A stretch of DNA of 64,000 bases. Origin: a virus (taxonomy: Duplodnaviria; Caudoviricetes). Location of the stretch: IMG/VR virus record IMGVR_UViG_3300021958_008980, positions 1 to 64,000 of that record. One strand, given 5' to 3'. The position numbers were made by a program, and so were the translations under genes. This document shows, piece by piece, positions 36,864-54,845 of the stretch; position 1 is the first letter of the stretch, and each line of letters starts with the position of its first letter. The notes below the pieces were generated by a model. The model was not told the origin of the DNA, ran no database searches, and worked only from the letters and a program-made list of their open reading frames with translations.

Positions 36864-37914
36864 ATATAAACTCCTTTATTTTTTCACATACATAGTCAAC
36901 TTCTCTTGTTGTCAGATGTGGATAAATTGGAAGGCTGATTGCCTTTGCACAAAGTTTTTCTGCATTTGGATACATGCCTACATTTTTTGTGTCCAATATT
37001 TTTGGGTAATGTACTTTTGTTTCTATACCTTTTGTTTCCAAGAAATTTTTTAATTCATCTCTCCTGTCAGTTAGAATAACCAATTTGTGATTGCTGGATT
37101 CGGTGTTTGGTCCTGCACACACTATTTGTACTTCTGTAAGATTTTTATGATATCTCTTACACAACTTTGCTCTAGAACTTTGTAACCTATCAAATTTTTG
37201 TAATAGCAATAATAGTTGACAAGCATGATCTTCGGATATAAGACTGTTGTAACCATAGGTGTGTTTGCCACTAACACCATGTCTTCGTAAGGACAAAACA
37301 TTATCGCGTATTTCCTTGCTGTCGGTAAGCACCATACCACCACCACCAAAACTAGGCATGTTCTTCATAGGATCAAAACTAAACACGCTGACATCTCCCA
37401 ATGCACCTGATGGTATCTTTCCGTACATGGCGCCCTGTGACTGTGCGGCGTCTTCTATGAGAGGTATCCGGTGTGTATCACAATATTTCCTCAGCCTTTG
37501 ATAGTTTGCAGGGTTTCCGAACATGTTTACATACAACACCGCGTCTGGTAATCCTTGACCTTGCCAATCACCAATGTTGCCATTTTCGTCTGTATCAACG
37601 AAATGAATATCTGCACCCAAGCGTTTTATTGCTCCTGACGTGGCAATGTAACTGAATGCTGGACAGATTATTGTGTTGTCTTTGTTCAATCCCACGGCTC
37701 TCATGGCAAAGTATAAACCATCAGTAGCACTGCCTACTCCAACTGCATACTTTCTTTTGTATTTTTTTGCAATCTTTTGCTCTAACTCTTTAAGGAATTT
37801 TCCTTGTAGCACATCACCAGATTCCCATACCGCTTTGGCTCTTCTTGCAAGACGCCAACTGTAATCGTCATACAGCCTGTCAACACCATTAAATTTTATT
37901 TTGTAACCATTCAT
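36856..37914 (-). CDS. DegT/DnrJ/EryC1/StrS PLP-dependent sugar aminotransferase
   Basis: VGSATDGL, IEDAAQS, FSFDPMKN, GGGG, LSLPIYPHL; likely ATG at 37914. Confidence 0.93.
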   Translation of the reverse strand: MNGYKIKFNGVDRLYDDYSWRLARRAKAVWESGDVLQGKFLKELEQKIAKKYKRKYAVGVGSATDGLYFAMRAVGLNKDNTIICPAFSYIATSGAIKRLGADIHFVDTDENGNIGDWQGQGLPDAVLYVNMFGNPANYQRLRKYCDTHRIPLIEDAAQSQGAMYGKIPSGALGDVSVFSFDPMKNMPSFGGGGMVLTDSKEIRDNVLSLRRHGVSGKHTYGYNSLISEDHACQLLLLLQKFDRLQSSRAKLCKRYHKNLTEVQIVCAGPNTESSNHKLVILTDRRDELKNFLETKGIETKVHYPKILDTKNVGMYPNAEKLCAKAISLPIYPHLTTREVDYVCEKIKEFIYV

Positions 37915-38839
37915 AATAATTTTCAAGTCCTTGTCTAAACGACACCTGTGGAACGTACTCTAATAGATCTTTTGCACGTGATATGTCCAGTGTTCCCCTC
38001 ATAGGGTAAAGGCTTTGCATTCCAATGTCGTTGATGTCTGATTCACTACCGGTTATATCAATAATTGTTTCCGCTAGTGTTCTCAGGCTTGATGCATTGC
38101 CGGCTGTAATATTAAAACTGGTGTTTGCCACATCAGAATTTGCCGCTCTAATTATTCCATCGGCCGCATCATCTCTGTAAGTGAAATCAACTTTGTTCTC
38201 ACCATTGTGTAAAGTGATTGTTTCATTGTTCATGGCCTTTGCAAAAAACTTAGAAACTACTCTGTCTGGAAGATCTCCAGGACCATAAACACCACTTGGA
38301 CGCACGATTATGTAATTCAACCCATCACGTTTTGCAAATAATTTTGTAAGTCTCTCTCCAGTAAGTTTTGCTTCTCCGTATATGTTTGTAGGTTTAGTAT
38401 TTGACTCTTCCCTTGTTCCGTCGACAAAATCTCCATACACCATGCTACTGCTGACGTACACAAATTTTTTTGTGTTGAATTGTGTTGCGTGCCACAACAG
38501 ATTAGTTGTTGTGCCAATCACTTTTGGTATTCCATTGATTGGATCTTGATCAACTATTTTTGCTCTAGGATATGTTGCTAGATGTATGACAATGTCAGGA
38601 TTATATTTGAAGGCCTTCAGACACACCATCCTATCTAATATGTCTCCGTCGATGATATGCACTTTGTCTTTTTTCCAATTACGTGTTCTCCATTCTATAA
38701 GTGCGTCAAGATTTTCTTTGGTTATAATATCGTAAGTGTCTTTGTTATCAATACACTGAATGCTGTGTCCTTCGTTTGAAAGTTTCTCTATTATCTTGCT
38801 TCCTATAAATCCCAGTCCGCCCGTGATCAAATATTTCAT
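37889..38839 (-). CDS. NAD-dependent sugar epimerase/dehydratase (extended SDR)
   Basis: ITGGLGFIG, HLA, YVSSSMVYG, YGEAK, VDFTY; ATG at 38839. Confidence 0.92.
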   Translation of the reverse strand: MKYLITGGLGFIGSKIIEKLSNEGHSIQCIDNKDTYDIITKENLDALIEWRTRNWKKDKVHIIDGDILDRMVCLKAFKYNPDIVIHLATYPRAKIVDQDPINGIPKVIGTTTNLLWHATQFNTKKFVYVSSSMVYGDFVDGTREESNTKPTNIYGEAKLTGERLTKLFAKRDGLNYIIVRPSGVYGPGDLPDRVVSKFFAKAMNNETITLHNGENKVDFTYRDDAADGIIRAANSDVANTSFNITAGNASSLRTLAETIIDITGSESDINDIGMQSLYPMRGTLDISRAKDLLEYVPQVSFRQGLENYYEWLQNKI

Positions 38840-38988
38840 CAAAACTCCTTCTTTATTCCTAGTTGTGGATTCTCCACACAACTGTCTTTGATTTCCTTCA
38901 TTGTTTCCTTGTTTAGATCCACGTCACAACTCGCACTGGGTTTTATTCCGCAACCTGCTAACAACACGAACATTATCAAATATTTCAT
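38839..38988 (-). CDS. 49-aa lipoprotein (below the ORF-track cutoff)
   Basis: MKYLIMFVLLAGC lipobox; ATGA overlaps at both ends. Confidence 0.7.
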   Translation of the reverse strand: MKYLIMFVLLAGCGIKPSASCDVDLNKETMKEIKDSCVENPQLGIKKEF

Positions 38989-40457
38989 CCCAATACCTTT
39001 ACACCGTATTTGTTGGTAAATGCTTTACCATCTTGTCTATCATTTACAATTGGTTGTCCTTTTATGTTCAAACTGGTGTTGAGAAGTATGGGGCAACCCG
39101 TCTGTCGTTTCCATTCCGTGAGCAGTGCGTGGAACCCTGGATTATCCGTTTTTCGCACCGTTTGTACCCTAGAAGTGTGATCGTGGTGTATTATAGCAGG
39201 AAACTCTTTACCATGCGTACACGCCGCTGTAAATTGCATATAAGGGGTGTTTTTGACTGCTTTAGGTAGCTCAAAATAGTCGTTTACATCCTCTTCCAAT
39301 ATGGCAGGAGCGAACGGTCTAAACTTCTGTCTTTTCTTTATACTGTTTACCAGATCCTTGATGTCCTCACCCCGCGGGTCAGCCAACAGTGATCTATTAC
39401 CAAGTGCCCTAGGACCAAACTCCGCCCTACCACTTGCAACTCCCACCATTTTGTTTTCCTTTAATTCTTTTATCAGCGCATCAACCGGATACTCACCTTC
39501 TATGTTGTGTCCCAGGAATGGGTGTTGCCAATCAAGATGTCTTTTCTCATGAGCGGCAATACAGCCTAGGCTGGATCCTGCGTCTCCGGGATTTGGAATT
39601 ATCCATATGTTGTCAAACATTCCCATGTTTGCCAGCACCCTGTTAGCGGCACAATTAAGTGCCACACCACCTGCATACACCAAGTTCCTACTGCCATACT
39701 TGGATGCCCTGGTCCATAGGTCTGCCAGCAGTTCTTCCGTCACTGCCTGTATGCTGGCCGCTATGTCCATTACGTCTGCGTTAGGTTCCCAATCACTGAG
39801 ACCCCTGTGTAGATTCTGTTTCAGTTTGAAGGGTGATTGTTCTACGAATTCATCATATATCTTCTGTTTGTACTTTGGTTGTCCGTATGCCGCCATGCCC
39901 ATAAGGATGTATTCCTCTTCAGCAGGTTTTAGACCACAACGATGTGTGAATGCACTGTAGAGTATTCCAATGCTGTGTGGATACTGAATTGTTTCTTTAC
40001 GTTCAATCCAAATTTTTTCAGCAGTCGATATGGACACAGTGTCCCACTCACCAATAGCATCTACTGTGAGTATTGTTGCACCTTCGTCCTTGAATGGTGA
40101 AGTGAAGTAACCGGCCGCGGCGTGTGAGTCGTGATGCTTCACGTACTCATCTATCTTTATGCCAAAGTGGTCAAGGTGCCATTGTGGCATCTCTGTGTAA
40201 CTCATTGCCAGTCCATATTGTCCTGCGTAGAACTGTCTCGCCTTCTTGAGCAAAGGTTTTTCATAGTAAACGACCTTATCGAATGGACCATGTGTCATTG
40301 CCTCGTCCACTATCATCTGATTGAGGTAATGATCATTCTTGACTTTAGAATATCTCTCTGCGTGTGCGGCCCATAATATTTTTCCTATGCCTCCGCTGTA
40401 ATCTACAACGGCCATGGCGGCATCATGATTCATGCAGTTTATTCCTAGTATTCTCAT
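38985..40457 (-). CDS. O-carbamoyltransferase (NodU/CmcH/TobZ family)
   Basis: HDAA, AERYSKVK, HHDSH, VDAIGE, GGVALN, GDAG, GPRALGNRS, RPFAP, LNTSLN; ATG at 40457. Confidence 0.95.
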   Translation of the reverse strand: MRILGINCMNHDAAMAVVDYSGGIGKILWAAHAERYSKVKNDHYLNQMIVDEAMTHGPFDKVVYYEKPLLKKARQFYAGQYGLAMSYTEMPQWHLDHFGIKIDEYVKHHDSHAAAGYFTSPFKDEGATILTVDAIGEWDTVSISTAEKIWIERKETIQYPHSIGILYSAFTHRCGLKPAEEEYILMGMAAYGQPKYKQKIYDEFVEQSPFKLKQNLHRGLSDWEPNADVMDIAASIQAVTEELLADLWTRASKYGSRNLVYAGGVALNCAANRVLANMGMFDNIWIIPNPGDAGSSLGCIAAHEKRHLDWQHPFLGHNIEGEYPVDALIKELKENKMVGVASGRAEFGPRALGNRSLLADPRGEDIKDLVNSIKKRQKFRPFAPAILEEDVNDYFELPKAVKNTPYMQFTAACTHGKEFPAIIHHDHTSRVQTVRKTDNPGFHALLTEWKRQTGCPILLNTSLNIKGQPIVNDRQDGKAFTNKYGVKVLG

Positions 40458-40888
40458 CTGTGAGGACCCATATTTCCGTGTTTGTCTTGTATGTCTTGCT
40501 TGATTAGATATGCCCACATGTTGGCTTCTTGATGTGTTACTCTAAAATCATAAGTCGAGGGTTTTTGAAACATCTTGTTTGTGTCCTCAAACCTTCCTTC
40601 CTTTATTGTGTCCATCCAAACTGTGTAATCTGCTTTGAACTGTTTCCTTGTTTCTTCAGTTGGGCACACAAAATCGGCCACAACATTTCTATTCCTGTCA
40701 ACGGCCTCTTCAGCAAGAGTCCACATGCGTAGTGATTGTCTCTTTCTACCCTCTTCCGAGAAGTCCCAATCATCTGCTTCTTTTCTCACTACATCTGCGT
40801 TAATCCATACTGCATTGAACATCGGTGCAAGTAATTTCGCCAATGTTGTTTTGCCTGATCCTGGAAGTCCCATAATTAATATCTTCAT
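40454..40888 (-). CDS. adenylylsulfate-kinase (CysC)-like P-loop kinase
   Basis: GLPGSGKT, NADVVR...DFSEEGRKRQ, VADFVCP; ATG at 40888. Confidence 0.75.
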   Translation of the reverse strand: MKILIMGLPGSGKTTLAKLLAPMFNAVWINADVVRKEADDWDFSEEGRKRQSLRMWTLAEEAVDRNRNVVADFVCPTEETRKQFKADYTVWMDTIKEGRFEDTNKMFQKPSTYDFRVTHQEANMWAYLIKQDIQDKHGNMGPHR

Positions 40889-41562
40889 TTTACTTTCAAG
40901 AATCCTTTTGCTTTTACAAGTGCTGTTTCCCAATCTTCAAGAGTTATATCGTATTCAAAGTTTTGTGTCTTATCATTTACTTGTAACTCCTTTGCTCCAT
41001 TTTTTATATGGAAGTTCCTGGCCATATCCGTCAAGGGCGAAAGCGTGATCAACCTATTGAGGTGGTTTGACTTCTTGACCATCTTGTACACTTCGTTGAC
41101 AATGGCACGTCCGCCTCCCTTTTTCTTGGCCCATACCGTGTATGCTATCGCCATCGAACCTTGCACACCTGCCCTGTGTATAGATTGCAGTGCGGCATCA
41201 TAACTCATCTCTTCCATCTCTTCCACTGTCCTTGGCACGTCATTTGTGAACGCGAAACACATTATCGCGGCTATCTCACCAACATCGTCCTTCAAGCCGT
41301 AAATCTTCCTTCCGTATGATTGTCTGAATTGTAAGTCAAGTTCAGGACGCACAGGATCTTCCTTGACGTCTATGTAAGGCAATTCAACAAGTTCATACTT
41401 GGCTTCTTTGATTTTCTGCTTGGTGTATGCTTCTAAACTTTTGTAATTTTTATTTGTGTATGATTGTAACTGTGAAAATTTCTCCAAGAGTCCAGTAACG
41501 GATGGATGTTCCTTCCATCGTTCCAAAACTTCTTTCAGTTTTTCTCTATTGAGTATTTCCAT
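40885..41562 (-). CDS. hypothetical protein, possible GNAT-like fold
   Basis: AIAYTVWAKKKGGGRAIV...LITLSP. Confidence 0.55.
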   Translation of the reverse strand: MEILNREKLKEVLERWKEHPSVTGLLEKFSQLQSYTNKNYKSLEAYTKQKIKEAKYELVELPYIDVKEDPVRPELDLQFRQSYGRKIYGLKDDVGEIAAIMCFAFTNDVPRTVEEMEEMSYDAALQSIHRAGVQGSMAIAYTVWAKKKGGGRAIVNEVYKMVKKSNHLNRLITLSPLTDMARNFHIKNGAKELQVNDKTQNFEYDITLEDWETALVKAKGFLKVK

Positions 41563-41565
41563 TTC

Positions 41566-41670
41566 TTATTTGTATATGAATGGGTCTTTCTTTTTTAGTT
41601 CTTTCAATCTTTTCCTGTACTTGATCTCTTGCTTGATCTTGTTAATAAGATTTTTTATCCAAGTGAACAT
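41566..41670 (-). CDS. 34-aa basic peptide
   Basis: MFTWIKNLINKIKQEIKYRKRLKELKKKDPFIYK; GAGGA RBS; TAATG overlap. Confidence 0.6.
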   Translation of the reverse strand: MFTWIKNLINKIKQEIKYRKRLKELKKKDPFIYK

Positions 41671-42464
41671 TATTTTCCTCCTATCAGTTTGTTAAAAGTT
41701 GGTAACATTAATTGTACGGCATCCTCGTGTGCCTTGTCAAGCGGATGTGTTGTGGCATATTCATAATGATTTAGACTGGCCCATTGGTTGAATCCCATCA
41801 TACGCTCTCCAAATGAAAACCATTTGGTAAGATCTATCTCGTCATGTAGACCTGTCATGAGAGAATCTATGTTCTTCATGTGTGCTTCGTAATCATAGAA
41901 CAGGCTGTTGTCAGCAAGAGTAAACATGTATGGAATGTTTTTCTTCTCCAAAATGTTCTGCAACCATATTATGCTCTTCCAACTGAGATAGGCTTCATGG
42001 TACATGTTGGCCGCGTACTTGTATATTGCTTCTGCGAAGGGACCGGTGCCATTGTGTTTGGCTATCTCCCTCCTTTCATTCCAAAGTTGCATTTGGTAGT
42101 CATCATTTTGCAATTTTTCAAATACCCTTCCTTGATCTTTTTCCGTATCCCAAGGCGACAGGCTGGCCCATCTTGCTGATTCAAGCGAACCATGGCGCTT
42201 CATTGCCCAGTCGTATCTTGAAAGGAAACTCCACATCACCACCACACAATCAACTTCATCCTTTGAAATTTCATGAAACACCCTACGTGCTATTCCACAA
42301 TTTCCTAATCCTCCCCTGGCTGTGTTAATAAACGTACTGCCACTGTCTCTAATTTTATGTAAGTGACTGCTCCACGTCTTTTGTGATGGCAAGCCGGGTG
42401 TGTCATCACTGAGTTCATGCCCCCAAGTGAAACTGCAACCTCCTGCTATAAATCTTTTAGTCAT
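41670..42464 (-). CDS. SGNH/GDSL-like esterase or acyltransferase
   Basis: GGCSFTWG (block I), GGLGN, VVVMWS, HPLDKAH. Confidence 0.7.
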   Translation of the reverse strand: MTKRFIAGGCSFTWGHELSDDTPGLPSQKTWSSHLHKIRDSGSTFINTARGGLGNCGIARRVFHEISKDEVDCVVVMWSFLSRYDWAMKRHGSLESARWASLSPWDTEKDQGRVFEKLQNDDYQMQLWNERREIAKHNGTGPFAEAIYKYAANMYHEAYLSWKSIIWLQNILEKKNIPYMFTLADNSLFYDYEAHMKNIDSLMTGLHDEIDLTKWFSFGERMMGFNQWASLNHYEYATTHPLDKAHEDAVQLMLPTFNKLIGGK

Positions 42465-43623
42465 ATATTTGTAAAACTTTATTTAAAAGCGGAAAAACTT
42501 CTCCAAAATTTTCTTTCCTGTACTGATCTGTTTGCAGTATACGAGACTTACGTCTTTCCCTGATGTCCGGTGTGTCTCTGTCCTGAGAATTCATAAAACG
42601 CAGTGTTGGCTGAAAATCAGTCAACATGTTGTACCTACTGTTTACTATGTTCTTAACTTGCTTAGGTAATGTTTGCACATTGAAATAATCTGGATCAAAG
42701 CATGTGTTCACATAGAAAAATTTTGGCTGGTACTGAGCCACCCATAGAGATATCTTTGCAAGATTAAAGATATTAAATATTGACACAGTAGAACATATCT
42801 GGAAGTCCATGTTAGGAGTCTGCTGTTCTTTAAATTTTACTAGGTTGGCATTAACTTCTCTCCAGTTGGCAGGATGTCTTTGATACTCGAAGGGCTCTCC
42901 AACATCGTCTATACTGAAAGCAATTTCGACATGTTTGAAATAACTCCATAGGTCAAATATTTCCTGTGGTGGGAGTTGCGTGCCGTTTGTGTTGTAATGA
43001 ATGTCTATGTTCTTGGCATATCCCTTCTCCACACAGTGCATCAATATCTTGAAGTGATCCTTGATCATGAATGGTTCACCACCAGTGAACTCGAAATACT
43101 CTACGTGCTTGAGATCTTCCTGCAACTCGTCAAAAAACTGTGGATTACGTTTTGGCCAACCGCCCTCACGCAGATTCTTCCTGGCAACTGGATTTTCCCC
43201 ATAATCAAGTTCCTCTTGAGCCCATTTTGAAGAACTCCATGATCCACAGATTCTACACTTGAGGTTACACACGTTACCTAACTTAAAGTCTATAAATTTC
43301 AGCGTTGGCTCGCTGTTAGGTGTCCAGTCCGTTAAACTTTTCTTCATTTTGTAAATTGAATTTTGTCTCTTTGAAGTTTTTCCTGCATTTTCTTCCTGCC
43401 AGCAACTTTGGCAACCTTCAGGACGTGCTCCGTCACGGAATTGGCCTCGCAGTGTTTCCATGAAATTAGAGTGCTGTATAGATTTAAGGCTCTGTTTGTA
43501 GACTTTTACATCGGGGACATTGCCCTTGTACAAACAGCATGGAGATGCGCCGCCATTTACATCGACTTCGAGATGTGTCCAAGGCAAAGGACACACATTG
43601 GATTTTATATACTTTTCCACCAT
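42457..43623 (-). CDS. radical SAM protein with N-terminal twitch/SPASM-like domain
   Basis: CPLPW...PCC...CQSC; CNLKCRIC; GGEP. Confidence 0.92.
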   Translation of the reverse strand: MVEKYIKSNVCPLPWTHLEVDVNGGASPCCLYKGNVPDVKVYKQSLKSIQHSNFMETLRGQFRDGARPEGCQSCWQEENAGKTSKRQNSIYKMKKSLTDWTPNSEPTLKFIDFKLGNVCNLKCRICGSWSSSKWAQEELDYGENPVARKNLREGGWPKRNPQFFDELQEDLKHVEYFEFTGGEPFMIKDHFKILMHCVEKGYAKNIDIHYNTNGTQLPPQEIFDLWSYFKHVEIAFSIDDVGEPFEYQRHPANWREVNANLVKFKEQQTPNMDFQICSTVSIFNIFNLAKISLWVAQYQPKFFYVNTCFDPDYFNVQTLPKQVKNIVNSRYNMLTDFQPTLRFMNSQDRDTPDIRERRKSRILQTDQYRKENFGEVFPLLNKVLQIYD

Positions 43624-45011
43624 TCTAAGATTTCCGGTTCCTTTGCTAATATTTTTTTGATGTCGGTTCCACGTATACTATCCAATCTTTCACATTCATT
43701 TTTACCGTGCCTCCAACCCTTTTCGCAGGTTTCCCTGTCGTATCTTTCATCGTTAGTGGCATGGCTCTTGATGTCATGTAGGCCTTCGAGGAATGCCATG
43801 TTGAAAACACTCTTTTTTTCATCCTTGTATTTGTGTATCAACTTATCAAGTACAAGGTTTAATAACTTTCTCGGCAACCATAAAGGGCTCATAAAAATTT
43901 CTGGACTGAATGTAAAAACTTTTTTGCACAGCAACGGTACCTGTAAATCTTTTTGTAGTTCATGCATGTTTTCCAGATCAAAAAGGCCTGGCATGGTTAC
44001 AGTCAGGTCTAGTTGCAGTTGTCTAGGATGTTTCATAAATTTTCTAGCATACCTCATATTTTCCAACCACTCGTCATACTTGAGTCCTGTTCTAATATAT
44101 TCTCCTATCTCGCCGGTGCCGTCGATGCTGGCATTTATTTGCCAATCTTTGAATTTTGATAGCACGTCATCGAACAAATTTTTCCCAAAGAATTCTATTC
44201 TGCTCATGTTCGAATTATACCTTGCAAACACACTGTCAGCATATCCAAGTTCTATTACACGTTGCATGGCTGTCCAGTGTATTTTCCACATCAAAGGTTC
44301 ACCGCCACACCAGTAAAATTCTTTAATTGTTTTGTTCTCAACTGCTTCCATAAATTCTTTGACAACGTGTTGATCATGGAATTTCTGTAATTGTTCTTTG
44401 ATGTCTTTCCTACCCCATATATCTTTTGTTTCGTACCTGTCTGCTCTCCCATGCTTTCTGTTCTCTGCCTCCCAACTGCTTGAAAGCATATCACCGCACA
44501 TTCTACATGAAAAATTACATAAATTAGAAAACCTGTAGTCCCAACTTGTAACTTTCATAGTGGTGGCACCTGTATCATCTGTTGATTCAAACGCTTCGTC
44601 TATTTGGCCAGCGTAGAACCTGTTAAAATGCTGTCTATAAACTTGAGAGTTAAGCAGTTTGTGGTTACAAGTGGCGCATTGTGGTATTTCTTTTCCGGCC
44701 AAGAGTTTTAATCTTATACTTTTCATGTACTCCGAATTCCAGTGTTCATCCAGAGTTTGCAAGTTTATTTTTCTGTTCTCTCCGTTTTTTTTAAGTTCAG
44801 AAGTGGTATCTATGTACTGTTTGAAATTTTTAGATTCTTCTCTCGAGGCACAACACAACCTTCTCTCCATCTGTGGTGATATGTAGGTGTGCGTCCACGG
44901 CGCCATACAAAATGTCTTGTTACCTTCACTTGGTTTTATCCTTTTATTTGAAGTGACAACTATTCCCTGCCTTGGCCAACGTTCTTCTGCAGTCGGAAAT
45001 CTATTTTTCAT
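43605..45011 (-). CDS. radical SAM protein with N-terminal twitch/SPASM-like domain
   Basis: CMAPW...LCC...CATC; CNFSCRMC; GGEP; likely ATG at 45011. Confidence 0.92.
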   Translation of the reverse strand: MKNRFPTAEERWPRQGIVVTSNKRIKPSEGNKTFCMAPWTHTYISPQMERRLCCASREESKNFKQYIDTTSELKKNGENRKINLQTLDEHWNSEYMKSIRLKLLAGKEIPQCATCNHKLLNSQVYRQHFNRFYAGQIDEAFESTDDTGATTMKVTSWDYRFSNLCNFSCRMCGDMLSSSWEAENRKHGRADRYETKDIWGRKDIKEQLQKFHDQHVVKEFMEAVENKTIKEFYWCGGEPLMWKIHWTAMQRVIELGYADSVFARYNSNMSRIEFFGKNLFDDVLSKFKDWQINASIDGTGEIGEYIRTGLKYDEWLENMRYARKFMKHPRQLQLDLTVTMPGLFDLENMHELQKDLQVPLLCKKVFTFSPEIFMSPLWLPRKLLNLVLDKLIHKYKDEKKSVFNMAFLEGLHDIKSHATNDERYDRETCEKGWRHGKNECERLDSIRGTDIKKILAKEPEILEWWKSI

Positions 45012-46290
45012 ATTTTTCAAATAGTTCCTTCCATTCGGGAAACACATCTAGTGTGTTTTCGTTTCGTATAGAATCATACTTTCTTGTCTGCGAAAAAAAA
45101 TTATCTAGATGTTTTTGATTGTCTGTGGCCATCATCCATTCTATTGCAGACTGATATCCTTTGGTTGCCCTGGTAAGATGATCCTGACCTTGCAACCATT
45201 TCATGTGCGATTCATATTTCTCCTTCACCGCTTGTTTGTACTCCGCTGGTAGCAAATCCATTCTCTGCCACGTGGGGTGTTGTAAAAGATTGAAATTGAA
45301 ATCCTGTGGTTTTATTAGTCCCTGATCTACCCAACTCTTATGGAAATCTGTTACGTGTAGGCTGTTTATTAATCCGACTGTCGAACTGATATAAAAATCC
45401 ACCTGTGGACATATTTCCATCATTCTTTTCCTGTTGTCAACTATTTCTTTCCACACCGTGCCTTTACGCATCAGTTCTGCACGTGGTCCTTCCGCATCTA
45501 GACTGGCTCCTATGCTTACCGAATCAAACTTGTTCCATAACTCGAACACATCTATATCTTTGAATTTGGTCCTGCTGAAATTTGTGTTGTATATCAACCT
45601 AACGTGATACATTTTTCTTTTGTCTAACTCCTTAAGTATGCGATAGTGCTCTTCCATCATTATTGGTTCACCACCCGCAAAGTAAAACTGCTCTGTGTGT
45701 TCAAACTGTTCCAACATCTGCTCCCAAAGATCGTCGGTGTGTCTTCCTACCCTCATTATTTTTGCGTGGGGAGGTGGACTGCCTGTAAGTTTTTTATGGT
45801 CCTCGTACCAATTGGAACTGAACCATGTTCCACAACTCCTGCAGGCCATGTTACATATGTTTGAGAAACGTATGTCCCAATACTTCATTACGAAATCCGC
45901 TGTGCCGTCAGGCTGTGTGTTGTTTACTAAAGGAATATTGTGACCAAAGTGTTTGTTTGAACTCAATCGCAAACTGAAAAATCCAGACTTTTCTTGGTCA
46001 TAACATTTGAGGCATTCACGCGATTTCTTATTGTTCAACATTCTTACACGCATTTCTTTCATTTTTTCTCCATTGAAGACTTCCGAAAGACTCTGTTCGT
46101 TAAGATTTCCTACAGGATAAGGATCGAAAGCAAAACAGCATGGATAGGCTCTTCCGTCCGGGTATGCATGAATGTGCATCCATGGCAACATACAGAATGT
46201 GTCACTTTCTAAAAGTAACTCCTTTTCTTTTGCAGTCATGTCGTCTATTTTAAGTTTTACGGGCTCCTTTGCCCCATACTCATATGCCAC
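45001..46290 (-). CDS. radical SAM protein with N-terminal twitch/SPASM-like domain
   Basis: CMLPW...PCC...CLKC; CNMACRSC; GGEP; GTG start. Confidence 0.92.
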   Translation of the reverse strand: MAYEYGAKEPVKLKIDDMTAKEKELLLESDTFCMLPWMHIHAYPDGRAYPCCFAFDPYPVGNLNEQSLSEVFNGEKMKEMRVRMLNNKKSRECLKCYDQEKSGFFSLRLSSNKHFGHNIPLVNNTQPDGTADFVMKYWDIRFSNICNMACRSCGTWFSSNWYEDHKKLTGSPPPHAKIMRVGRHTDDLWEQMLEQFEHTEQFYFAGGEPIMMEEHYRILKELDKRKMYHVRLIYNTNFSRTKFKDIDVFELWNKFDSVSIGASLDAEGPRAELMRKGTVWKEIVDNRKRMMEICPQVDFYISSTVGLINSLHVTDFHKSWVDQGLIKPQDFNFNLLQHPTWQRMDLLPAEYKQAVKEKYESHMKWLQGQDHLTRATKGYQSAIEWMMATDNQKHLDNFFSQTRKYDSIRNENTLDVFPEWKELFEKYEK

Positions 46291-47623
46291 GGTACCATTC
46301 TCCTATAATTGGGAAAGTTTTTTCAAAATCTTTTCCTGTTCTATTATCATATTGGCTGTAGAAAGTTTTAAAATCTTTCTGTAATTTTTCCTGTGCGGCC
46401 GCACCTGCGTGGGGTGTTTTCACAACATCCAAATAATCGATAAGTCTTTGCGTTTGATTCACTTCCATGCCCTCTAACCATTTCTCATTAGTAGTTAAGA
46501 ACTTTTGGAGGTCTCCTTTAAATTTATTCCTTAGGTCGTCTGGTAGTACAAGAGGCGATTGAAAACTAGGAAATCTCAAAATGTTCAAAGTGAAATTCAT
46601 TGTTGGTCCATAGACTTTACCTGCACCTTTGAACCATACAAGTTTCTCTAAAAACTCCGGAAGTGATTCCAAACACAATGCGTTTATTGTGGCCATGTTG
46701 TGTATTTCAGACGGCACCTTGTCTACCATCATGTGTAGAACTTGACTATGCCAATCACCATAATCTAATCCGTCTCTTATGTATTCGGCCTGACCAAATA
46801 TTGCTTCACAACTAGTGTACAAGTGAAAATTTTTAAAATTTTTTAATTTTGTTTTAAATCTATCGATGATGCTTTGCTTTGCTCCCAGATTGGAGTTTAT
46901 TGCAATACGCATTTTTGGATTCATCCTGTCACCCTGTGTTTCAATCCAATCCAGCAGTCTCCATAAATTCGGTGACATCATGGGCTCACCACCTGTGATC
47001 CTTAATTCGTCCAAACTTTTATGCAAGTCAGTCTCCCACCATTTATAGAACGCCTCAACATAGGGATTGTGTTCATCCTTCTTGTATGGTTCTGCCGATT
47101 CATGGCTGTGGGTGTAGTGATTCCTTCCATCTGATGTAAGTCCTGCGTACGGTCCATGCTGTTTTATATTGTTGGCCCAAGTAGAACTGAACGCTGGATT
47201 GCAGTATGTACAAGCAAACTGACACGTCCTATCGAAGGCGATCTCCAGTGTTTTCAGGTTACAGTCTACATCGTGGCCAGAGTCGAATGCTTCTTTAAGG
47301 TGTTCATCATCGAAAATCCTGGATTTGTACACCCTATCACTGATTGCATCACGACCTATGTCTTCAATTTTCCAGCAGTACTCACACCCTGCTGGTCTTT
47401 CTCCGTTCTGCATCTGCCTGCGCTGTTCTTTTTTTTCTTTTGTGTTGTGTATAGCACTTGGATTGTCTTTTATAGCCTGCAAATCTATCTTGTGCGGTAA
47501 CGGATGGTGACAACTTGTTGTCATTCCTGATCCCAGCCATATCGTTGCATTGTACCACTTGGCTCCACAGAAACTTGCGGATTTCGTGTCCAGTACCTGG
47601 CGTTTGTATTCTAGATCATTCAT
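46280..47623 (-). CDS. radical SAM protein with N-terminal twitch/SPASM-like domain (C-x-AKW subtype)
   Basis: CGAKW...SCHH...CEYCW; CQFACTYC; GGEP; likely ATG at 47623. Confidence 0.92.
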   Translation of the reverse strand: MNDLEYKRQVLDTKSASFCGAKWYNATIWLGSGMTTSCHHPLPHKIDLQAIKDNPSAIHNTKEKKEQRRQMQNGERPAGCEYCWKIEDIGRDAISDRVYKSRIFDDEHLKEAFDSGHDVDCNLKTLEIAFDRTCQFACTYCNPAFSSTWANNIKQHGPYAGLTSDGRNHYTHSHESAEPYKKDEHNPYVEAFYKWWETDLHKSLDELRITGGEPMMSPNLWRLLDWIETQGDRMNPKMRIAINSNLGAKQSIIDRFKTKLKNFKNFHLYTSCEAIFGQAEYIRDGLDYGDWHSQVLHMMVDKVPSEIHNMATINALCLESLPEFLEKLVWFKGAGKVYGPTMNFTLNILRFPSFQSPLVLPDDLRNKFKGDLQKFLTTNEKWLEGMEVNQTQRLIDYLDVVKTPHAGAAAQEKLQKDFKTFYSQYDNRTGKDFEKTFPIIGEWYRGI

Positions 47624-48990
47624 GAGTTCTTGCACTCCTCCCAGAACTCCTCCATCTCAGGAAATGTGTTCAAGAACCGTGTCAGACGTCTTCTGTCATG
47701 TTCGTTAAAAAATGCGTAAAAGTTTTTCTTGTTTTGCGTACTTGTGTCCGCGTTGTCGCGCCAGAAAGCGAGATTCCTTTGCATCTTCTGTATCTCGAAG
47801 TCTTTGAATATGTGCAGGCCCTTTTCCTCTCCGGAGTTGGCCTTCATGTACTCTATGTTGGCCTCATGGATGGCCTGATATGACTCTGGCAGGATGGTGA
47901 TCTGTTGCCATGCGGGCTGTCTCAACAGTGGCACGTCAAACCATACCCTCTGGTAGGTCTTTGAGTAACGTTTACGCAGTTCCATTATCTTCTCCAGCAG
48001 TCGGTCCATGCTGGTGATACTGAGGTTGTTGTAGGTGCATATGAATGTGATGGAATTACGCACAGGTATCCTGTCAAGGAACTCCTCCACGTTGTCCATC
48101 ATGTAGTTGAAATCTAGTCCGTCACGTATGTACTCTGCCCGTTTGCCATATGCATCCACGGACACGAACTGCATCATGTGTTCCACCTTCTCCTCCATGC
48201 AGATGTTCTGTGCCATGTTGAAGTATTTCTCTTTCAATTTCTTGTCGGCCGGACACATGTTGCTGGTAACGTTGAGGTGTAGGTCCTGTTTGGGGTGATC
48301 CATTACGTATTGTAGCACACGATAAGTGTTCTTGTCCATCATGGGCTCACCTCCGGTCATCCTGAAGTGCTTGAGGTTCTTGTACAGCGTTGGCCACCAC
48401 TTCCAGAACGCGGTCACGTATGGGTTCTCCTCACGGTTGGGTATCGGCCTTCTGCGACCCTGAAAATGCTCGGGAGCGTTGTGTGGAGGTGTCGTCGGGT
48501 ACTCGCCGTAGGTTTCCACCTCCTTGGCCCACGTTGTCGAGAACTGTGGCGAACAATAACTACACCTGAAGTTGCAGGCGTTGTTGAAGTTGACCTCAAC
48601 GTACCTGGGCGTGTGCCTTTCGTCTATAGGATTGTCTTTGATCTTGTCGAAGTCCTGGATTGCCCATGGTTCACCCGAACGGTAGTGCCTGTCAGACATC
48701 TCACCGGTCTTCTCTATGTTCCAACAATAACTGCAACCATCTGGTTTTTCGCCGGACAGCATCTGTTCACGCTGTCGCATTTTCTCCTGGGTGTTGTGCA
48801 GTGCCGCTGGATTGTCCTTCAATTGATCCGCATCTATCTCGTGCAGTGGCGGATGGTAGCAACTGTTGGTAAGTCCAGTGGGTAGGTGCAGTGACGTCTG
48901 GTTCCACTTGGCCAGGCACATCGTGGGTGAAACCTGCTCAAGTTTCTTCTGTGCCGCCATTGCATCACTGCTGTACTTACTTGTACTCAC
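47620..48990 (-). CDS. radical SAM protein with N-terminal twitch/SPASM-like domain (C-x-AKW subtype)
   Basis: CLAKW...SCYH...CSYCW; CNFRCSYC; GGEP; GTG start. Confidence 0.92.
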   Translation of the reverse strand: MSTSKYSSDAMAAQKKLEQVSPTMCLAKWNQTSLHLPTGLTNSCYHPPLHEIDADQLKDNPAALHNTQEKMRQREQMLSGEKPDGCSYCWNIEKTGEMSDRHYRSGEPWAIQDFDKIKDNPIDERHTPRYVEVNFNNACNFRCSYCSPQFSTTWAKEVETYGEYPTTPPHNAPEHFQGRRRPIPNREENPYVTAFWKWWPTLYKNLKHFRMTGGEPMMDKNTYRVLQYVMDHPKQDLHLNVTSNMCPADKKLKEKYFNMAQNICMEEKVEHMMQFVSVDAYGKRAEYIRDGLDFNYMMDNVEEFLDRIPVRNSITFICTYNNLSITSMDRLLEKIMELRKRYSKTYQRVWFDVPLLRQPAWQQITILPESYQAIHEANIEYMKANSGEEKGLHIFKDFEIQKMQRNLAFWRDNADTSTQNKKNFYAFFNEHDRRRLTRFLNTFPEMEEFWEECKNS

Positions 48991-49873
48991 GATCTTGCAC
49001 TCCCTTGTTTTTGTGAGGATTCATTGCGAACTTAAAGAACTTGCTGTCTTCCGCTGTGAAATCTGCGAGCGGCACATCCATTCTTTGCCTCAGGCTCTCT
49101 CCATACAGTCGGAGCGCCTGGTCTATGTCGTTTTCCTCAAAAAATTTGTTATAAACATTTTCCATGTTGTCTAAATCCCTAACGCCTAGGTGATCCAGTC
49201 CGTCCAGCACAGTGTTGTACATGCCTAACCTGGCACCCATCATGGCGTACTTGCCGTTCTCCACATCTGCACCAACGGACATCCACGTGGTGAGTGTCCT
49301 CAGGTTGGGTGGCCATATCTGCTTGGCAAAGTTGTCTGGTTGCAAAGGCCTGCCCTTCGTAGTGCTCATCTTTACACCTTCCCTGTATCCTGCCACGAAC
49401 GCCTGTCTTGGGTCAGCATTTATTACTGTGGTGGAATAGCAGTTGTGCAGGTTCTCGTGTGGTACGCCCCAGCAGAAATCAATCTGGTTCTCATCACTGT
49501 CTGCGTTTTCGTGTGTCCGCATATTGAGGCATGTCTTCTTAGACCAACCTACAAGTCCACCGTTTCCGTATACCAATCCATTTATGTTGTTCAGTGCCCG
49601 CCACCTGTGTACTGCGTTTCTGTCGGTAAGTGTAAAATCCAAAGTCTCCAATAAAAACTGTTCGTGTAATATGTTGTCACCGTCAACAGATATGAAAAAG
49701 TCCGTGTCTGCTACCTCGGCCGCGGCCTTGTGTGCGTTGTCGAAACCAACAACTCCATCAACACGCTTGGCCCATGGCACCTTGTTCCTGAGGTCCGCCC
49801 AATTCTCTTCCTTATTAGGCTCCTTGAAACTGATGTACACGAAATCTAGATCTGCAACTTTTACCTTGTCCAT
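48977..49873 (-). CDS. GT-A fold glycosyltransferase-like protein
   Basis: FVYISFKEP...FFISVDGDN (DxD); likely ATG at 49873. Confidence 0.7.
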   Translation of the reverse strand: MDKVKVADLDFVYISFKEPNKEENWADLRNKVPWAKRVDGVVGFDNAHKAAAEVADTDFFISVDGDNILHEQFLLETLDFTLTDRNAVHRWRALNNINGLVYGNGGLVGWSKKTCLNMRTHENADSDENQIDFCWGVPHENLHNCYSTTVINADPRQAFVAGYREGVKMSTTKGRPLQPDNFAKQIWPPNLRTLTTWMSVGADVENGKYAMMGARLGMYNTVLDGLDHLGVRDLDNMENVYNKFFEENDIDQALRLYGESLRQRMDVPLADFTAEDSKFFKFAMNPHKNKGVQDREYK

Positions 49874-50154
49874 GTGTAACCCCCATCTACCACATCTGTT
49901 GGCCAAAACATATTTCCCTGCAACAGTCCAAGACCTTTGTCTCCTTTTTCCAACATGGAGTATTTTGACCTGGCCTGTTGCTGTGGTCTCCTACAAATTT
50001 CACCTTTTACAATATGGTACTCTGCCTCACCGTTGTTCCTGATTTCATTGAAAAGTTTTGTCGACACCTGGTACTGCTTACCGTCTATGGTCACTTCGGG
50101 TAGTGACTTTTTATGTTCTGGCAATTTTGCGATTGACTCAAAAAATCCTGGCAT
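49861..50154 (-). CDS. hypothetical protein
   Basis: 97 aa; AAGGA RBS; overlaps neighbours. Confidence 0.65.
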   Translation of the reverse strand: MPGFFESIAKLPEHKKSLPEVTIDGKQYQVSTKLFNEIRNNGEAEYHIVKGEICRRPQQQARSKYSMLEKGDKGLGLLQGNMFWPTDVVDGGYTWTR

Positions 50155-50944
50155 AGATGTCCTTTATTGTGTGTTTGTCCACATAGTGCCATGGTCTTGT
50201 CACAGCGTATCCGCCTAAAAACAACTTATTTTCGGCCAAAGTTGGGAGCAGATAGGAATTTTGGTCTATGTGTCTATCCAGTTTGTTAACTGCTTTCTTG
50301 TTGTGTATCATTTTAAACCATGGATAGTTTATCAACTTCCGCTTCACTGGATCCATTATCCTGTATGCCAATGCATACACCATGTCGGTGCTTGGATATC
50401 TATCATGACATCCTATCAGCATCTGTTCACGTACTGTTTTCCAGTTTTTTGTCAAATATTTACAGACGTGACCAAACACCCGAGAAGAAGAACAGTGCCT
50501 GAAATAGGTCAGATCACTATACAAGTTTGGCAGTTGGTTCCTGTCATGGTGTGGCCTATATGTTCTATCCCTGACCAACTTATCTTGGTAATTGTAACAG
50601 TCCACCGAAAACACCAATTCATGCCTGCACAGGTAGTTCCACCACCAATCAGTGTTGGCTGTCCACAGCATGTCCGCGGCAAGTTTGATGGTGTGTTTGA
50701 AAGGTGACATTGTGAATGCCTTGTATTCGTTTGCCCACTTAATATCATCATTTTCGCTTTCGTCATGCCCTAGTATTTGCACTTCATCTATCAAAGGCGA
50801 ATTGATTTTGGTCTTTGAGTCTGTTATCACACACACCTTGTTATATTTGTTGTATCTTTTGATCGACTTTGCCAGTGACAGTGACAGTTCAACGTAATCT
50901 GTCTTGTCGTTATTTTGGCAGAACCATAAAAAACCCTTAGACAT
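50138..50944 (-). CDS. GT-A-like protein (GT8/GT71-like), degenerate DxD
   Basis: SPFKHTIKLAADML aligns with SPYEKTILLDIDY of the adjacent paralog. Confidence 0.65.
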   Translation of the reverse strand: MSKGFLWFCQNNDKTDYVELSLSLAKSIKRYNKYNKVCVITDSKTKINSPLIDEVQILGHDESENDDIKWANEYKAFTMSPFKHTIKLAADMLWTANTDWWWNYLCRHELVFSVDCYNYQDKLVRDRTYRPHHDRNQLPNLYSDLTYFRHCSSSRVFGHVCKYLTKNWKTVREQMLIGCHDRYPSTDMVYALAYRIMDPVKRKLINYPWFKMIHNKKAVNKLDRHIDQNSYLLPTLAENKLFLGGYAVTRPWHYVDKHTIKDIYARIF

Positions 50945-51683
50945 AGGCTACCCCTTTGTCAATAACATGCACATCGTTGTTTTCAATTTGTCCAACACGA
51001 CCTTCGTAATTCCATTTGATGTGGCTTTCTGATATTTCTGTAACAACAGCATTTCCTGGAAGTGTTGGCAGGTTGGTTGGGATGGTCTCATATCCTCGGA
51101 AACCACCAAGTTGGTGGAGAGCGATTGCGAACGCATAATCATTCCTAAAGTTCTTGAAATCTATTCTATAGAGCTCACAGAAATAATTATACCGTTGCTT
51201 TACGTACTTCACCATATCAAAAATTGCTTTCGCTCTCTGCGATTTTTTGAATATGATTGCTGTGGCCCACACCATCGGGATCATGGAATTCCTACTAAAC
51301 CTGTAACTATCATTACCAGTAATATCATGAACCTTGTCGTGTACCATGAAGTCTTGATCTGTGTTTGCCAATGTCAACAGGTATTCCGAAAAGCAAAAGT
51401 AATCTATGTCAAGCAAAATTGTTTTTTCATATGGTGAAAGTTCGTAGGCCCTGTACCTGTCTAAGTTGTGCCATGGTTTCCTGTTTATCTGATTGCCTGT
51501 TTCATTTTCTATCAGTTTGTAGTCTATAAATCCTAGGGGTGGCATACACTTGAACGTGTCTATGTTGGTAACGATTGTTATTGGTAGTCTGAGATACTTC
51601 TTCAACAAAGGCACTGTCTTGGCCGCAATTTTGTCATAGCGGTAGGTGTCGGTGTTGAAGCAATATAACAATACACCTGTCAT
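50937..51683 (-). CDS. GT-A-like glycosyltransferase (GT8/GT71-like)
   Basis: YELSPYEKTILLDIDY (DxD), VWATAIIF, RNDYAFAIAL. Confidence 0.7.
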   Translation of the reverse strand: MTGVLLYCFNTDTYRYDKIAAKTVPLLKKYLRLPITIVTNIDTFKCMPPLGFIDYKLIENETGNQINRKPWHNLDRYRAYELSPYEKTILLDIDYFCFSEYLLTLANTDQDFMVHDKVHDITGNDSYRFSRNSMIPMVWATAIIFKKSQRAKAIFDMVKYVKQRYNYFCELYRIDFKNFRNDYAFAIALHQLGGFRGYETIPTNLPTLPGNAVVTEISESHIKWNYEGRVGQIENNDVHVIDKGVAYV

Positions 51684-51688
51684 ATTGA

Positions 51689-52003
51689 CTAACCCTTTTT
51701 TATTGCTTCTTTGTAAGACTGATGATATCTGTTCAAGGCTTCCTGTTGTTTTCCTATGAGTTTATCCAAAAAATCATCTGGCTCTTCAACCTTCATTGGA
51801 TTGTCGTTACTGTCCAAAACTATAAAGTTTTGAAACTTGTCTTTAAGCACCTGTACAAGATTGATTGTTTGTGCATTGGCCTCGAACAGGTGTCCGGAAT
51901 AGGCCAAAAGCATCGATGACTTTGCTTTCTCTAATGCATTCTTTTTGTTGACTGCTATTCTGTATGATCTGTCAGAGGTATCTTTTAATGTCTGTAAGTC
52001 CAT
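51689..52003 (-). CDS. hypothetical protein heading the glycan island
   Basis: 104 aa directly after a sigma70 promoter. Confidence 0.7.
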   Translation of the reverse strand: MDLQTLKDTSDRSYRIAVNKKNALEKAKSSMLLAYSGHLFEANAQTINLVQVLKDKFQNFIVLDSNDNPMKVEEPDDFLDKLIGKQQEALNRYHQSYKEAIKKG

Positions 52004-52009
52004 ATCACA

Positions 52010-52038
52010 ATTATATTGTAATTATGGAATGATTTCAA
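52010..52038 (-). promoter_or_regulatory. sigma70-type promoter, probably leaderless
   Basis: On the - strand TTGAAA-N17-TATAAT-N6-ATG(52003); TAATTA in spacer. Confidence 0.75.
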
Positions 52039-52050
52039 CCTGAAAAAATA

Positions 52051-53007
52051 TTATGCAGTAGTATTACTTACAATCGCAGTTGAGCTTGGAGCGTACGAAT
52101 TAGCAAGGTGAGTAGAGTCAACATCCAGGGAAATAAGCCTGTGCTCGTGTACTCCGTTCCTGTATGCTGTGTTGTCTGCACTCGCGTCACTGAATGTAAA
52201 GTCAGCAGATCCGTCCGTTTCGGTGATCTTAACGGTAATTGTTACTGAAGAACCTGGTGAGGCATCCAATTTGGCCTCAAACTTGATGTTGTTGGCCGTG
52301 TATGGATAGTTTGCATCCGAAATCTGTAATAGTGTTTGATATGATGTTGTAAGATCATGGAATCCAGTTGTGTTCGCAAAGGAGTCTTGCGTTTCACCTG
52401 AACCAGATCTTAGACAATCTGTTGCCCTAATATCAAAGTTTCCAACAGCAGTGTGTATGCTGTCCCATGCTGTGTCTTTACCCGAAACACCGTCCGTACC
52501 CCCGCTACCGGTTCTCACAGGATCGATCCTGATTCTGCCTCCCGCATTGAAGAAAAATCTCATGTTTGCCGCACTTGAGAAAGTTGCAGACACTTCAGTT
52601 GTGAATGATCCGTACCAGTTCGCACTTGATGCCGGTGCCTGTAGCGATGCAGATGTTGTGGTTGCTGTGGTGTTTACACAACCGCCTGCAACCGATGCCG
52701 CTAATGTGGCAAGGTCTGCCGCAACTGCCGCCTTGATCTTGATCGGATCTCCTGCAGATACCTGTCCCCTTGCTGACAAAGTGTCTCCTGTGTGAGATGC
52801 AATAGTGTCCAGTCCTGAAAAGAAAGTATTCCAGTTAGCCGCTTTAATTGCCGCGCCAACTTCTACTGTTGGAATGTGTGTTTCGCCTAGTCCATATACG
52901 CCTGAGCCTGTGCCAGCGAAATGATTGTATCCATATGGATCAGAACTGCTGTTGACAAATGTGTTGTATTCGTCATCTAAAATTTTTTCACCTGCTACGT
53001 ATCCCAT
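52051..53007 (-). CDS. putative virion structural protein (tail/fibre-associated)
   Basis: Ser/Thr/Ala/Gly-rich beta-type composition; last gene of the tail block. Confidence 0.65.
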   Translation of the reverse strand: MGYVAGEKILDDEYNTFVNSSSDPYGYNHFAGTGSGVYGLGETHIPTVEVGAAIKAANWNTFFSGLDTIASHTGDTLSARGQVSAGDPIKIKAAVAADLATLAASVAGGCVNTTATTTSASLQAPASSANWYGSFTTEVSATFSSAANMRFFFNAGGRIRIDPVRTGSGGTDGVSGKDTAWDSIHTAVGNFDIRATDCLRSGSGETQDSFANTTGFHDLTTSYQTLLQISDANYPYTANNIKFEAKLDASPGSSVTITVKITETDGSADFTFSDASADNTAYRNGVHEHRLISLDVDSTHLANSYAPSSTAIVSNTTA

Positions 53008-53011
53008 AAAA

Positions 53012-54640: not shown

Positions 54641-54642
54641 CT

Positions 54643-54825: not shown

Positions 54826-54845
54826 TTATGTCTCCTTACTTGTAT

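Follow-up and report, generated by a model that had tools for sequence, protein, structure and literature searches.

In the canonical SPASM/twitch enzymes of the radical S-adenosylmethionine (SAM) type, for example BtrN, anSME, CteB, SkfB and BlsE, the auxiliary domain comes after the partial TIM barrel. Two further things are already known: an architecture with the twitch domain at the N-terminus is catalogued as the family NF033640, and there are marine T4-like viral genomes rich in radical SAM genes, one of 183 kb carrying an A-type Fe-S carrier gene together with 12 of them, according to the passages concerned (Nishimura et al. 2017, mSphere, PMC5332604). The subject here is a set of five genes, R1-R5, that stand back to back on the minus strand at 42457-48990 of a stretch of 64,000 nucleotides, called the window below (positions 1 to 64,000 of the IMG/VR record IMGVR_UViG_3300021958_008980; Duplodnaviria, Caudoviricetes). 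In their products, as in that of a sixth gene, R6, the auxiliary domain precedes the barrel. The source is an uncultured marine giant phage. The record itself has 76,464 bases, and CheckV lists its completeness as 2%. Since its relatives come to 197-354 kb, it is a piece of a giant-phage genome, and the 2% looks too low.

Judged from their sequences, R1-R5 are functional, non-redundant members of NF033640, with their activity predicted. What do they act on? Our favoured reading, to which we give about an even chance, is that they form a fixed set of five distinct radical enzymes that tailor a sugar or glycan made by the phage and probably destined for the fibre region. Editing of a sugar structure is the most likely activity because this fixed set sits among sugar-handling genes behind the tail-fibre genes.

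Domain order and conservation of R1-R5

The earlier note on this DNA had described five consecutive overlapping genes, and these are found as R1 (388 aa, 42457-43623), R2 (480 aa, 43605-45047), R3 (429 aa, 45001-46290), R4 (451 aa, 46280-47635) and R5 (456 aa, 47620-48990), all on the minus strand. The coordinates are those of the longest open reading frames (ORFs), which overlap by 8-47 nt from one gene to the next when so defined, and the true starts may sit slightly further inward. All five span the whole 398-position NCBIfam model NF033640 ("N_Twi_rSAM, twitch domain-containing radical SAM protein"; curated cut-off 170 bits) at 298-411 bits: 367 for R1, 316 for R2, 411 for R3 (the best family match), 298 for R4 and 325 for R5. 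The count of five is right for the array and one short for the window, where R6 (11629-12774, plus strand), missed by the earlier note, is a further N_Twi_rSAM copy that likewise matches over its full length (253.5 bits; Pfam SPASM at residues 11-70, Radical_SAM at 119-271).

The cysteine motifs on which the array was first recognized were all located in the translations. R1-R3 read CPLPW/CMAPW/CMLPW ... CC ... CxxC, and R4-R5, the second subfamily, CGAKW/CLAKW ... SCHH/SCYH ... CEYCW/CSYCW; CX3CX2C and GGEP are present in all six window proteins. In R1, R2 and R3, Pfam places SPASM (PF13186) at the N-terminus, ahead of Radical_SAM (SPASM 11-75 and Radical_SAM 115-267 in R1, 47-128 and 172-357 in R2, SPASM 33-97 in R3). 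For R4 and R5 the sole Pfam domain is Radical_SAM, below its cut-off, with no significant SPASM match and with the four N-terminal cysteines kept.

The N-terminal segment of R3 carries the argument for inversion. Residues 44-102 align to positions 269-328 of 370 in the NCBIfam model of anSME, i.e., to its C-terminal SPASM region, and also to the SPASM regions of the StsB, DynA and GeoRSP models. The auxiliary domain of the canonical enzymes and the N-terminal domain of R3 are thus homologous by the anSME, StsB and DynA alignments, and the domain order is truly inverted, as had been proposed. The layout is not new, however, because NF033640 already catalogues it: the N-terminal twitch is the defining trait of that curated family. 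No structural difference was seen between NF033640 and R1-R6, which share the order of N-terminal four-cysteine twitch, CX3CX2C core and helical C-terminal region.

How many auxiliary clusters would these proteins hold? Four to five cysteines stand before the core (C33, C51/C52, C93 and C96 in R3), with none between the CxxC and the core motif, and therefore one auxiliary cluster (twitch) is expected rather than two (SPASM). The set is of the four-cysteine twitch type, without the following CX5CX3C...C of SPASM, and is predicted to bind a cluster. Its spacing in R1-R5 is what we take to be that of the fully ligated twitch cluster of BtrN.

Structure prediction was run on R3, and the AlphaFold2 model, built on the family alignment, is a confident single body (pLDDT 93.8, pTM 0.90) in which the N-terminal cysteine region lies before the barrel: a beta-hairpin at 39-49, helices at 68-101 around the CxxC, and the barrel from residue 137. 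An all-helical domain (~349-427) takes the C-terminal place that the auxiliary domain has in canonical enzymes. Solved structures match the radical SAM core alone, at residues 133-392 with Z 12-14 by Foldseek and VIA-align, the latter in a complete sweep of 48,161 chains: BlsE 13.7, anSME 13.4, CteB 12.8, viperin 12.7, SkfB 12.5, SuiB 12.3 and MoaA 11.7. This core is what R3 has in common with BtrN, anSME, CteB, SkfB and BlsE (Z 12.5-13.7). The top sequence-profile match in the PDB is TigE (8vpo, E 8e-9), a cyclopropyl synthase (PMC10878394), with BlsE at E 5e-8. In sequence and fold searches of the PDB, no solved structure was found with the N-terminal part in that position, nor one with the whole architecture. 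As modelled, the core fold is silent on a sugar, nucleotide or peptide substrate, the top Z scores being effectively tied.

Pairwise identity among the six paralogues is 18-28%, the R4/R5 pair reaching 34%. R4 and R5 form one clade (100% SH-aLRT; 99-100% across FastTree and IQ-TREE under a mixture model, both agreeing), and R1, R2, R3 and R6 fall outside it, in the remainder of the tree. R4 lies within a 100%-supported clade that contains Bdellovibrionota copies, two of them from L147, a Bacteriovoracaceae contig. The two subfamilies of the earlier note, the strong divergence of the copies and their retention of the cluster cysteines are all borne out. In orthologue sets of 56-63 unique sequences per gene, 35-90% identical (lowest per orthogroup 35-54%), the seven cluster cysteines are retained at 97-100%: in 57/57 sequences for R1, 57/57 for R2, 61/61 for R3, 62-64/64 for R4 and 58-59/59 for R5. 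Extra conserved cysteines occur as well, namely an invariant C277 in R1, C321 in 63/64 R4 sequences, and C264 and C453 in R5. The family alignment, of 85 sequences, shows no variation in C33, C96, the CX3CX2C triad or GGEP, while C52 and C93 are present in at least 90%. Conservation at this level, taken from the alignments, is not what chance would be expected to leave.

Because the cluster cysteines are conserved at 97-100% in each orthogroup, R1-R5 appear neither redundant nor decaying. Recent redundant duplication was considered and ruled out, given the 18-34% identity, the separate conserved orthogroups and the bacterial sisters of four of the genes; the worry that the copies might be redundant and act on one substrate is answered to that extent by the age and separateness of the orthogroups. 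The sole decayed copy seen is in a 289-kb relative (G003, C1:193107-194384), at the R5 end, with two in-frame stops (TGA, TAA).

A set shared by phages and bacteria

The array R5-R4-R3-R2-R1 recurs in ~80 IMG/VR contigs. A distant phage group, ~50% identical, has the order R5-R4-R3-R1-R2, sometimes with extra copies, and R5-R4-R3-(R2,R1) is kept in all of the ~80 viral relatives whose locus is long enough to show order. The relatives of R2 fall into discrete identity classes (~50%, 58-69% and 73-76%). Of the candidates scored for R3, 5,411 are homologues at E<=0.001, with identities of 77-87% in the top 120, and close orthologues at 77-86% come from marine metagenomes.

Two lines of evidence indicate that R1-R5 cooperate and move as a unit. 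The first is a set of natural fusions that mirror the array order: P0122 joins an R5-like to an R4-like unit and was seen complete in four assemblies, while P0121 and P0124 join R3-like to R1-like units, and P0123 joins an R1-like to an R2-like unit. The second is L147, whose eight-copy array has genes for Obg and ribosomal protein L21 at its flanks and is therefore chromosomal. It holds sisters of R5 (gene 10868, 98% SH-aLRT), R2 (99%) and R1 (93%), both of the R4-clade members already mentioned (100%), and an R3-type member. Nothing else speaks as strongly as the fusions and the L147 sisters, taken together, for cooperation between the paralogues, for a set older than the phage lineage and for its movement as a unit. 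The R5-R4, R3-R1 and R1-R2 fusions also suggest contacts, and hence a possible physical complex. A bolder picture can be drawn, which we regard as speculative and somewhat unlikely: a self-contained radical machine, possibly a physical complex, passing between Bdellovibrionota and giant marine phages and carrying out serial C-H functionalisation of a glycan or glycoprotein, to yield an undescribed sugar or cross-link.

Some relatives depart from the plain array. In one, an alternative oxidase gene (PF01786, E 9e-79) is inserted between R3 and R2 (L028:11214-11891), and in others the insertions are a B12-binding radical SAM gene, a plain radical SAM gene and a conventional radical SAM gene with a C-terminal SPASM (L065:542-2002, L071:11290-12291 and L034:5484-6515). 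The same phage array is found at 73-76% identity on four short contigs, L088-L091 (NHDJ01000025.1, NHCU01000062.1, NZIN01000062.1 and JAIXHM010000126.1), which are binned as Verrucomicrobia, Betaproteobacteria, Rickettsiales and Flavobacterium and are probably mis-binned phage contigs. Two contigs of 148 and 183 kb in a Haliscomenobacter metagenome-assembled genome (MAG; L134, L135) each have a five-copy array of the phage type, in which an R3-like gene is ~50% identical, and could be a giant phage or prophage in that bin. Among cultured phages, a megablast search of 50,697 phage records gave no match to the array, and tblastn of R3 against phage records found identities of 22-25% only, in Ralstonia phage RsoM2USA, Vibrio phages K566/K567 and one marine single-cell virus record.

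NF033640 at large is a much wider family, with 8,638 clusters (50% identity) at E<=1e-30 in a profile search of 1.84 billion representatives. Its bacterial distribution is sparse: a member was present in 3/201 sampled Bacteroidota genomes and in 3/401 sampled Pseudomonadota genomes, one of the latter being the centre MAG, on a contig that is probably phage. Where the family does occur in bacteria, its carriers are multi-copy. A pattern scan, built from the subfamily alignment since the six-paralogue alignment had no sufficiently conserved stretch, returned 359 stretches in genomes of Bacteroidota, Bdellovibrionota, Elusimicrobia, Acidobacteriota and Verrucomicrobiota. Of the expansions seen in bacteria, the largest belongs to the Elusimicrobia MAG MJ-2014_bin-0981 (L155-L189), in which more than 15 contigs each carry a family member. 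Tandem arrays are usual for the family in bacteria and phages, with eight copies within 17 kb of a Bacteriovoracaceae contig and four to five in several others. Among the 150 top representatives, 32 consist of two or three N_Twi units fused together, and other members are fused to TPR, Sel1, GNAT (P0257) or a subtilase fragment.

A 354-kb, 98%-complete relative, G002, has 12 NF033640 copies above the cut-off and at least 14 radical SAM matches. It also carries two A-type Fe-S carrier genes (PF01521; C1:256604-256906 and 175425-175727), one of them beside a sub-threshold NF033640 match.

In the literature, no paper was found on any NF033640/N_Twi_rSAM member, its function, substrate or assay. 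Work retrieved under twitch radical SAM dealt, by its titles, with canonical C-terminal SPASM/twitch enzymes or with unrelated matters, and work on radical SAM in jumbo, marine or other phages yielded nothing on NF033640. The earlier note had allowed that the five might belong to a characterised family with a housekeeping role; no characterised member was found there.

Neighbouring genes and the substrate

In the window and its relatives, the order of genes around the array is fib542, u318, u104, u248, u268, u97, u309, R5-R1, u264, u225, a kinase, a carbamoyltransferase, a short-chain dehydrogenase/reductase (SDR), DegT and u426. The placement near fibre genes in a sugar-handling module agrees with what had been claimed, the array standing directly behind the tail-fibre genes. 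All of the genes described next are on the minus strand, unless stated otherwise.

Upstream, fib542 (53012-54640) is tail-fibre-like, matching PHROG tail-fibre and virion-protein families and, weakly, the Peptidase_G2 intramolecular chaperone. Between it and the sugar genes is u318 (52051-53007), whose translation is rich in Gly, Ser, Thr and Ala and which has no family match; it is a candidate structural protein and a possible substrate. Three glycosyltransferase-like genes follow. u248 (50937-51683) is possibly GT-A-like, by an invariant D92-x-D94 noted by eye, with no PDB or Pfam match. u268 (50138-50944) is probably a GT8/glycogenin-like glycosyltransferase, given invariant acidic residues and a weak profile match of its first 100 residues to glycogenin-1 (E 0.012). 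u309 (48977-49906) is glycosyltransferase-like with a GT-A fold and an invariant DGD (AlphaFold2 pLDDT 88.6; no Pfam or PHROG match); its stop overlaps the R5 start, and it adjoins R5 in nearly all relatives. Its top Foldseek matches are nearly all GT-A sugar-nucleotide enzymes, namely HddC, WrtF, the PBCV-1 capsid glycosyltransferase, ppGalNAcT2, TarS/TarP and SunS, and are weak (E ~5e-4, TM 0.3-0.4).

On the other side of the array, the start of u264 (41670-42464) overlaps the R1 stop. It is an SGNH/GDSL-like esterase or acyltransferase, with G9-x-S11, G52-x-G54-N55 and H246 invariant in 20 orthologues and only a weak GDSL match in the PDB (E 0.7). u225 (40885-41562) is a possible GNAT-type acetyltransferase, by a KKGGGRAIVNEV motif spotted by eye in its translated sequence, with no Pfam match. 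Then come a P-loop kinase of the APS-kinase/AAA_33 kind (40454-40933; Pfam AAA_33 2.8e-9, APS_kinase 9e-9), a carbamoyltransferase of the NodU/CmcH/TobZ type (38985-40517; Carbam_trans_C 8.7e-55, Carbam_trans_N 2.1e-43), the SDR, an NAD-dependent sugar epimerase/dehydratase (37889-38881; Epimerase 4.8e-43, GDP_Man_Dehyd 3.4e-33), and a DegT/DnrJ/EryC1 sugar aminotransferase (36856-37926; PF01041 4.4e-73). Pfam and PHROGs gave no match for u426, u225, u264, u309, u268, u248, u104 and u318, and profile searches of the PDB gave nothing, or weak matches, for u309, u264 and u248. A scan for promoters and terminators over 35000-54900 found no more than shuffled sequence gave (39 promoter-like sites against 42, and 11 terminator-like sites against 14), so the operon boundaries are drawn from gene packing alone.

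R6 has a partner of its own, a GT1 glycosyltransferase gene (12771-13937, plus strand) whose start overlaps the R6 stop. This pair (11629-13937, plus strand) lies inside a region read as a 7-deazaguanine DNA-modification gene set, and R6, instead of serving the fibre-side module, may be part of that pathway.

A core of u318, u248, u268 and u309, the genes R1-R5 and the carbamoyltransferase is shared by the close and distant phage groups; many loci of the distant group, not all, also have u264 and the kinase. Among close relatives, R3 is 72-87% identical, the carbamoyltransferase 66-95% (~50% in the distant group), u318 34-56% and the GT8-like pair u248/u268 37-58%. The rapid divergence of u318, u248 and u268 is how fast-evolving, host-facing parts would behave.

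The best reading of DegT, the SDR, the carbamoyltransferase, the kinase, the GT-A fold of u309, the weak glycogenin likeness of u268 and the coupling of R6 to GT1 is that they concern sugars. Known substrates of the carbamoyltransferase family (Nod factors, tobramycin, novobiocin, cephamycin) are hydroxyls of sugars or of other small molecules. Outside the phages, homologues of the carbamoyltransferase and the SDR recur beside bacterial N_Twi genes, and the Bacteroidota neighbours include GT2, GT4/GT1, methyltransferases, UbiA, a GDSL protein and a fibre-like protein of the type IX secretion system. A tally of 112 neighbours from ~30 bacterial loci gave PhyH 8, other radical SAM 5, GT2 4, TPR 4, UbiA 3, carbamoyltransferase 2, GT1 2 and GDSL 2.

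How might such a set work on a sugar? Each enzyme would bind a SAM-cleaving [4Fe-4S] cluster on CX3CX2C and a second, fully cysteine-ligated [4Fe-4S] cluster on the N-terminal twitch (C-x18-C-x40-C-x2-C), the latter serving as an electron conduit by analogy with BtrN and anSME. SAM would give a 5'-deoxyadenosyl radical, which would abstract hydrogen from an unactivated C-H bond. The five could act as one set, be it a pathway or a physical complex, with a different step for each: oxidation, epimerisation, deoxygenation or C-C/C-X bond formation. The multi-step radical assembly line on a glycan or on fibre proteins, as proposed in the earlier note, is an inference drawn from the gene context. 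The substrate would be a sugar made or transferred by the neighbouring GT-A-like transferases, SDR, aminotransferase and putative GNAT; it might then be carbamoylated, acyl-edited and perhaps phosphorylated, and its destination would probably be the tail-fibre region of the virion.

Several observations weigh against this reading. The commonest bacterial neighbour in the tally is a PhyH dioxygenase (8/112), and the TPR/Sel1 fusions suit protein substrates too. Seven scattered copies in G002 adjoin GroEL, FAD oxidoreductase, UvdE, DnaB and polB, not sugar genes, and the Bdellovibrionota arrays lie between housekeeping and transporter genes, with no glycosyltransferase among the neighbours scanned. 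In the phage module, the SDR and DegT, i.e., the genes of nucleoside diphosphate sugars, are variable and not core, and the glycosyltransferase assignments of u268 and u248 are weak. The modelled core of R3 is equally near to sugar/nucleotide enzymes (BlsE, viperin, MoaA) and to peptide enzymes (anSME, CteB, SkfB), at the Z scores given above, and the literature offered no NF033640 member with a known substrate. That all copies of the family sit among sugar genes is ruled out by the scattered G002 copies and the Bdellovibrionota arrays.

Alternatively, the five enzymes might modify protein, installing radical cross-links, epimerisations or hydroxyl/alkyl changes on u318 or the tail fibres, a chemistry of the kind known from peptides that are made on ribosomes and modified after translation (RiPPs) applied to a full-length structural protein. 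The array does stand directly behind the fibre genes and u318, and its nearest neighbours in sequence and fold include the peptide-modifying TigE (8vpo, E 8e-9), CteB, anSME, SkfB and SuiB. Thioether cross-links set on a protein by a SPASM enzyme are reported in one paper (PMC13692751). Family members fused to the protein-binding repeats TPR and Sel1, the frequency of TPR proteins and PhyH dioxygenases among bacterial neighbours, and a Bacteroidota pair that adjoins a secreted, fibre-like protein containing a Peptidase_S74 chaperone domain all lean the same way. However, u318 evolves far faster than the R enzymes, none of the scanned neighbours of the Bdellovibrionota arrays is fibre-like, and the conserved partners, the GT-A-like proteins and the carbamoyltransferase, point to sugars. 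Nor was a short precursor-like gene found, u104 and u97 looking like ordinary small proteins, or an RRE-type Pfam domain in R1-R5, for which no dedicated RRE search was made. On balance, we consider a protein substrate unlikely.

Action on nucleotides or phage DNA, giving modified or sugar-bearing bases or altered nucleotide pools in a DNA-modification or anti-defence programme, strikes us as very improbable. The place of R6 inside the 7-deazaguanine region, coupled to a glycosyltransferase, would suit it, as would the G002 copies beside polB, DnaB, UvdE and a QueE-like gene, and viperin, BlsE, MoaA and QueE are about as good matches to the core as any others. Thymidine hypermodification clusters also combine a kinase, a pyridoxal phosphate enzyme, an acetyltransferase-like gene and radical SAM genes. 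Against this, the array lies in the late structural block and strand, beside the fibres, and in giant phages the order of genes says little about function. We know of no GT-A/glycogenin-like transferase or NodU-type carbamoyltransferase that modifies DNA. As for viperin itself, its models score the R proteins at 15-31 bits, over the core region only, against cut-offs of 180 (NF038283) and 450 (TIGR04278).

A free small molecule (secondary metabolite, lipid or cofactor-like), kept off the virion and used in infection or in bacterial predation or competition, would accord with bacterial neighbours typical of natural-product and lipid tailoring (PhyH, B12-dependent radical SAM, WelO5-type halogenase, UbiA), with arrays that stand alone in predatory Bdellovibrionota and with the B12-radical SAM gene and alternative oxidase taken into relatives' arrays, but is highly unlikely in a phage module where no scaffold-forming enzyme (non-ribosomal peptide synthetase, polyketide synthase or terpene cyclase) was seen and where the linkage to fibre and glycosyltransferase-like genes is constant across ~80 phage contigs.

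Comparison with known systems

R1-R5 are a good target for enzymology, yet not a new architecture. NF033640 is a very large family with a permuted domain order, and no assayed member was found in the literature. The phage set is a compact, conserved and abundant five-enzyme system with defined partners, and its R3 has thousands of homologues; for these reasons it offers a practical entry into the chemistry of the family.

The radical-SAM-rich T4-like genome mentioned at the outset resembles G002 in that A-type Fe-S carriers are paired with many radical SAM genes, one carrier with 12 genes there and two carriers with at least 14 matches in G002. The passages concerned count these genes as Fe-S-related auxiliary genes, and mention in them neither the N-terminal-twitch family nor the five-gene set and its sugar partners (PMC5332604). 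If the reading of fibre decoration is true, it could help to explain why these phages have Fe-S carrier genes of their own.

The other likeness is with viruses that glycosylate their own particles. PBCV-1 has the capsid glycosyltransferase A64R, which is met among the fold matches of u309, and the phage, too, encodes GT-A-like transferases and sugar-nucleotide enzymes beside structural genes, here known from genes alone. Mycobacteriophage virions are reportedly glycosylated as well, by a virus-encoded system described by Freeman et al. in 2023. If the bolder picture of a radical machine is true, an undescribed structure carried by the tail fibres of such an abundant phage of the ocean could affect host recognition or resistance to degradation. 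The virus-encoded systems for virion glycosylation known to us, in PBCV-1 and mycobacteriophage, work without radical SAM enzymes; if the product of R1-R5 does decorate the tail fibres, radical chemistry would join the known viral routes to surface glycans.

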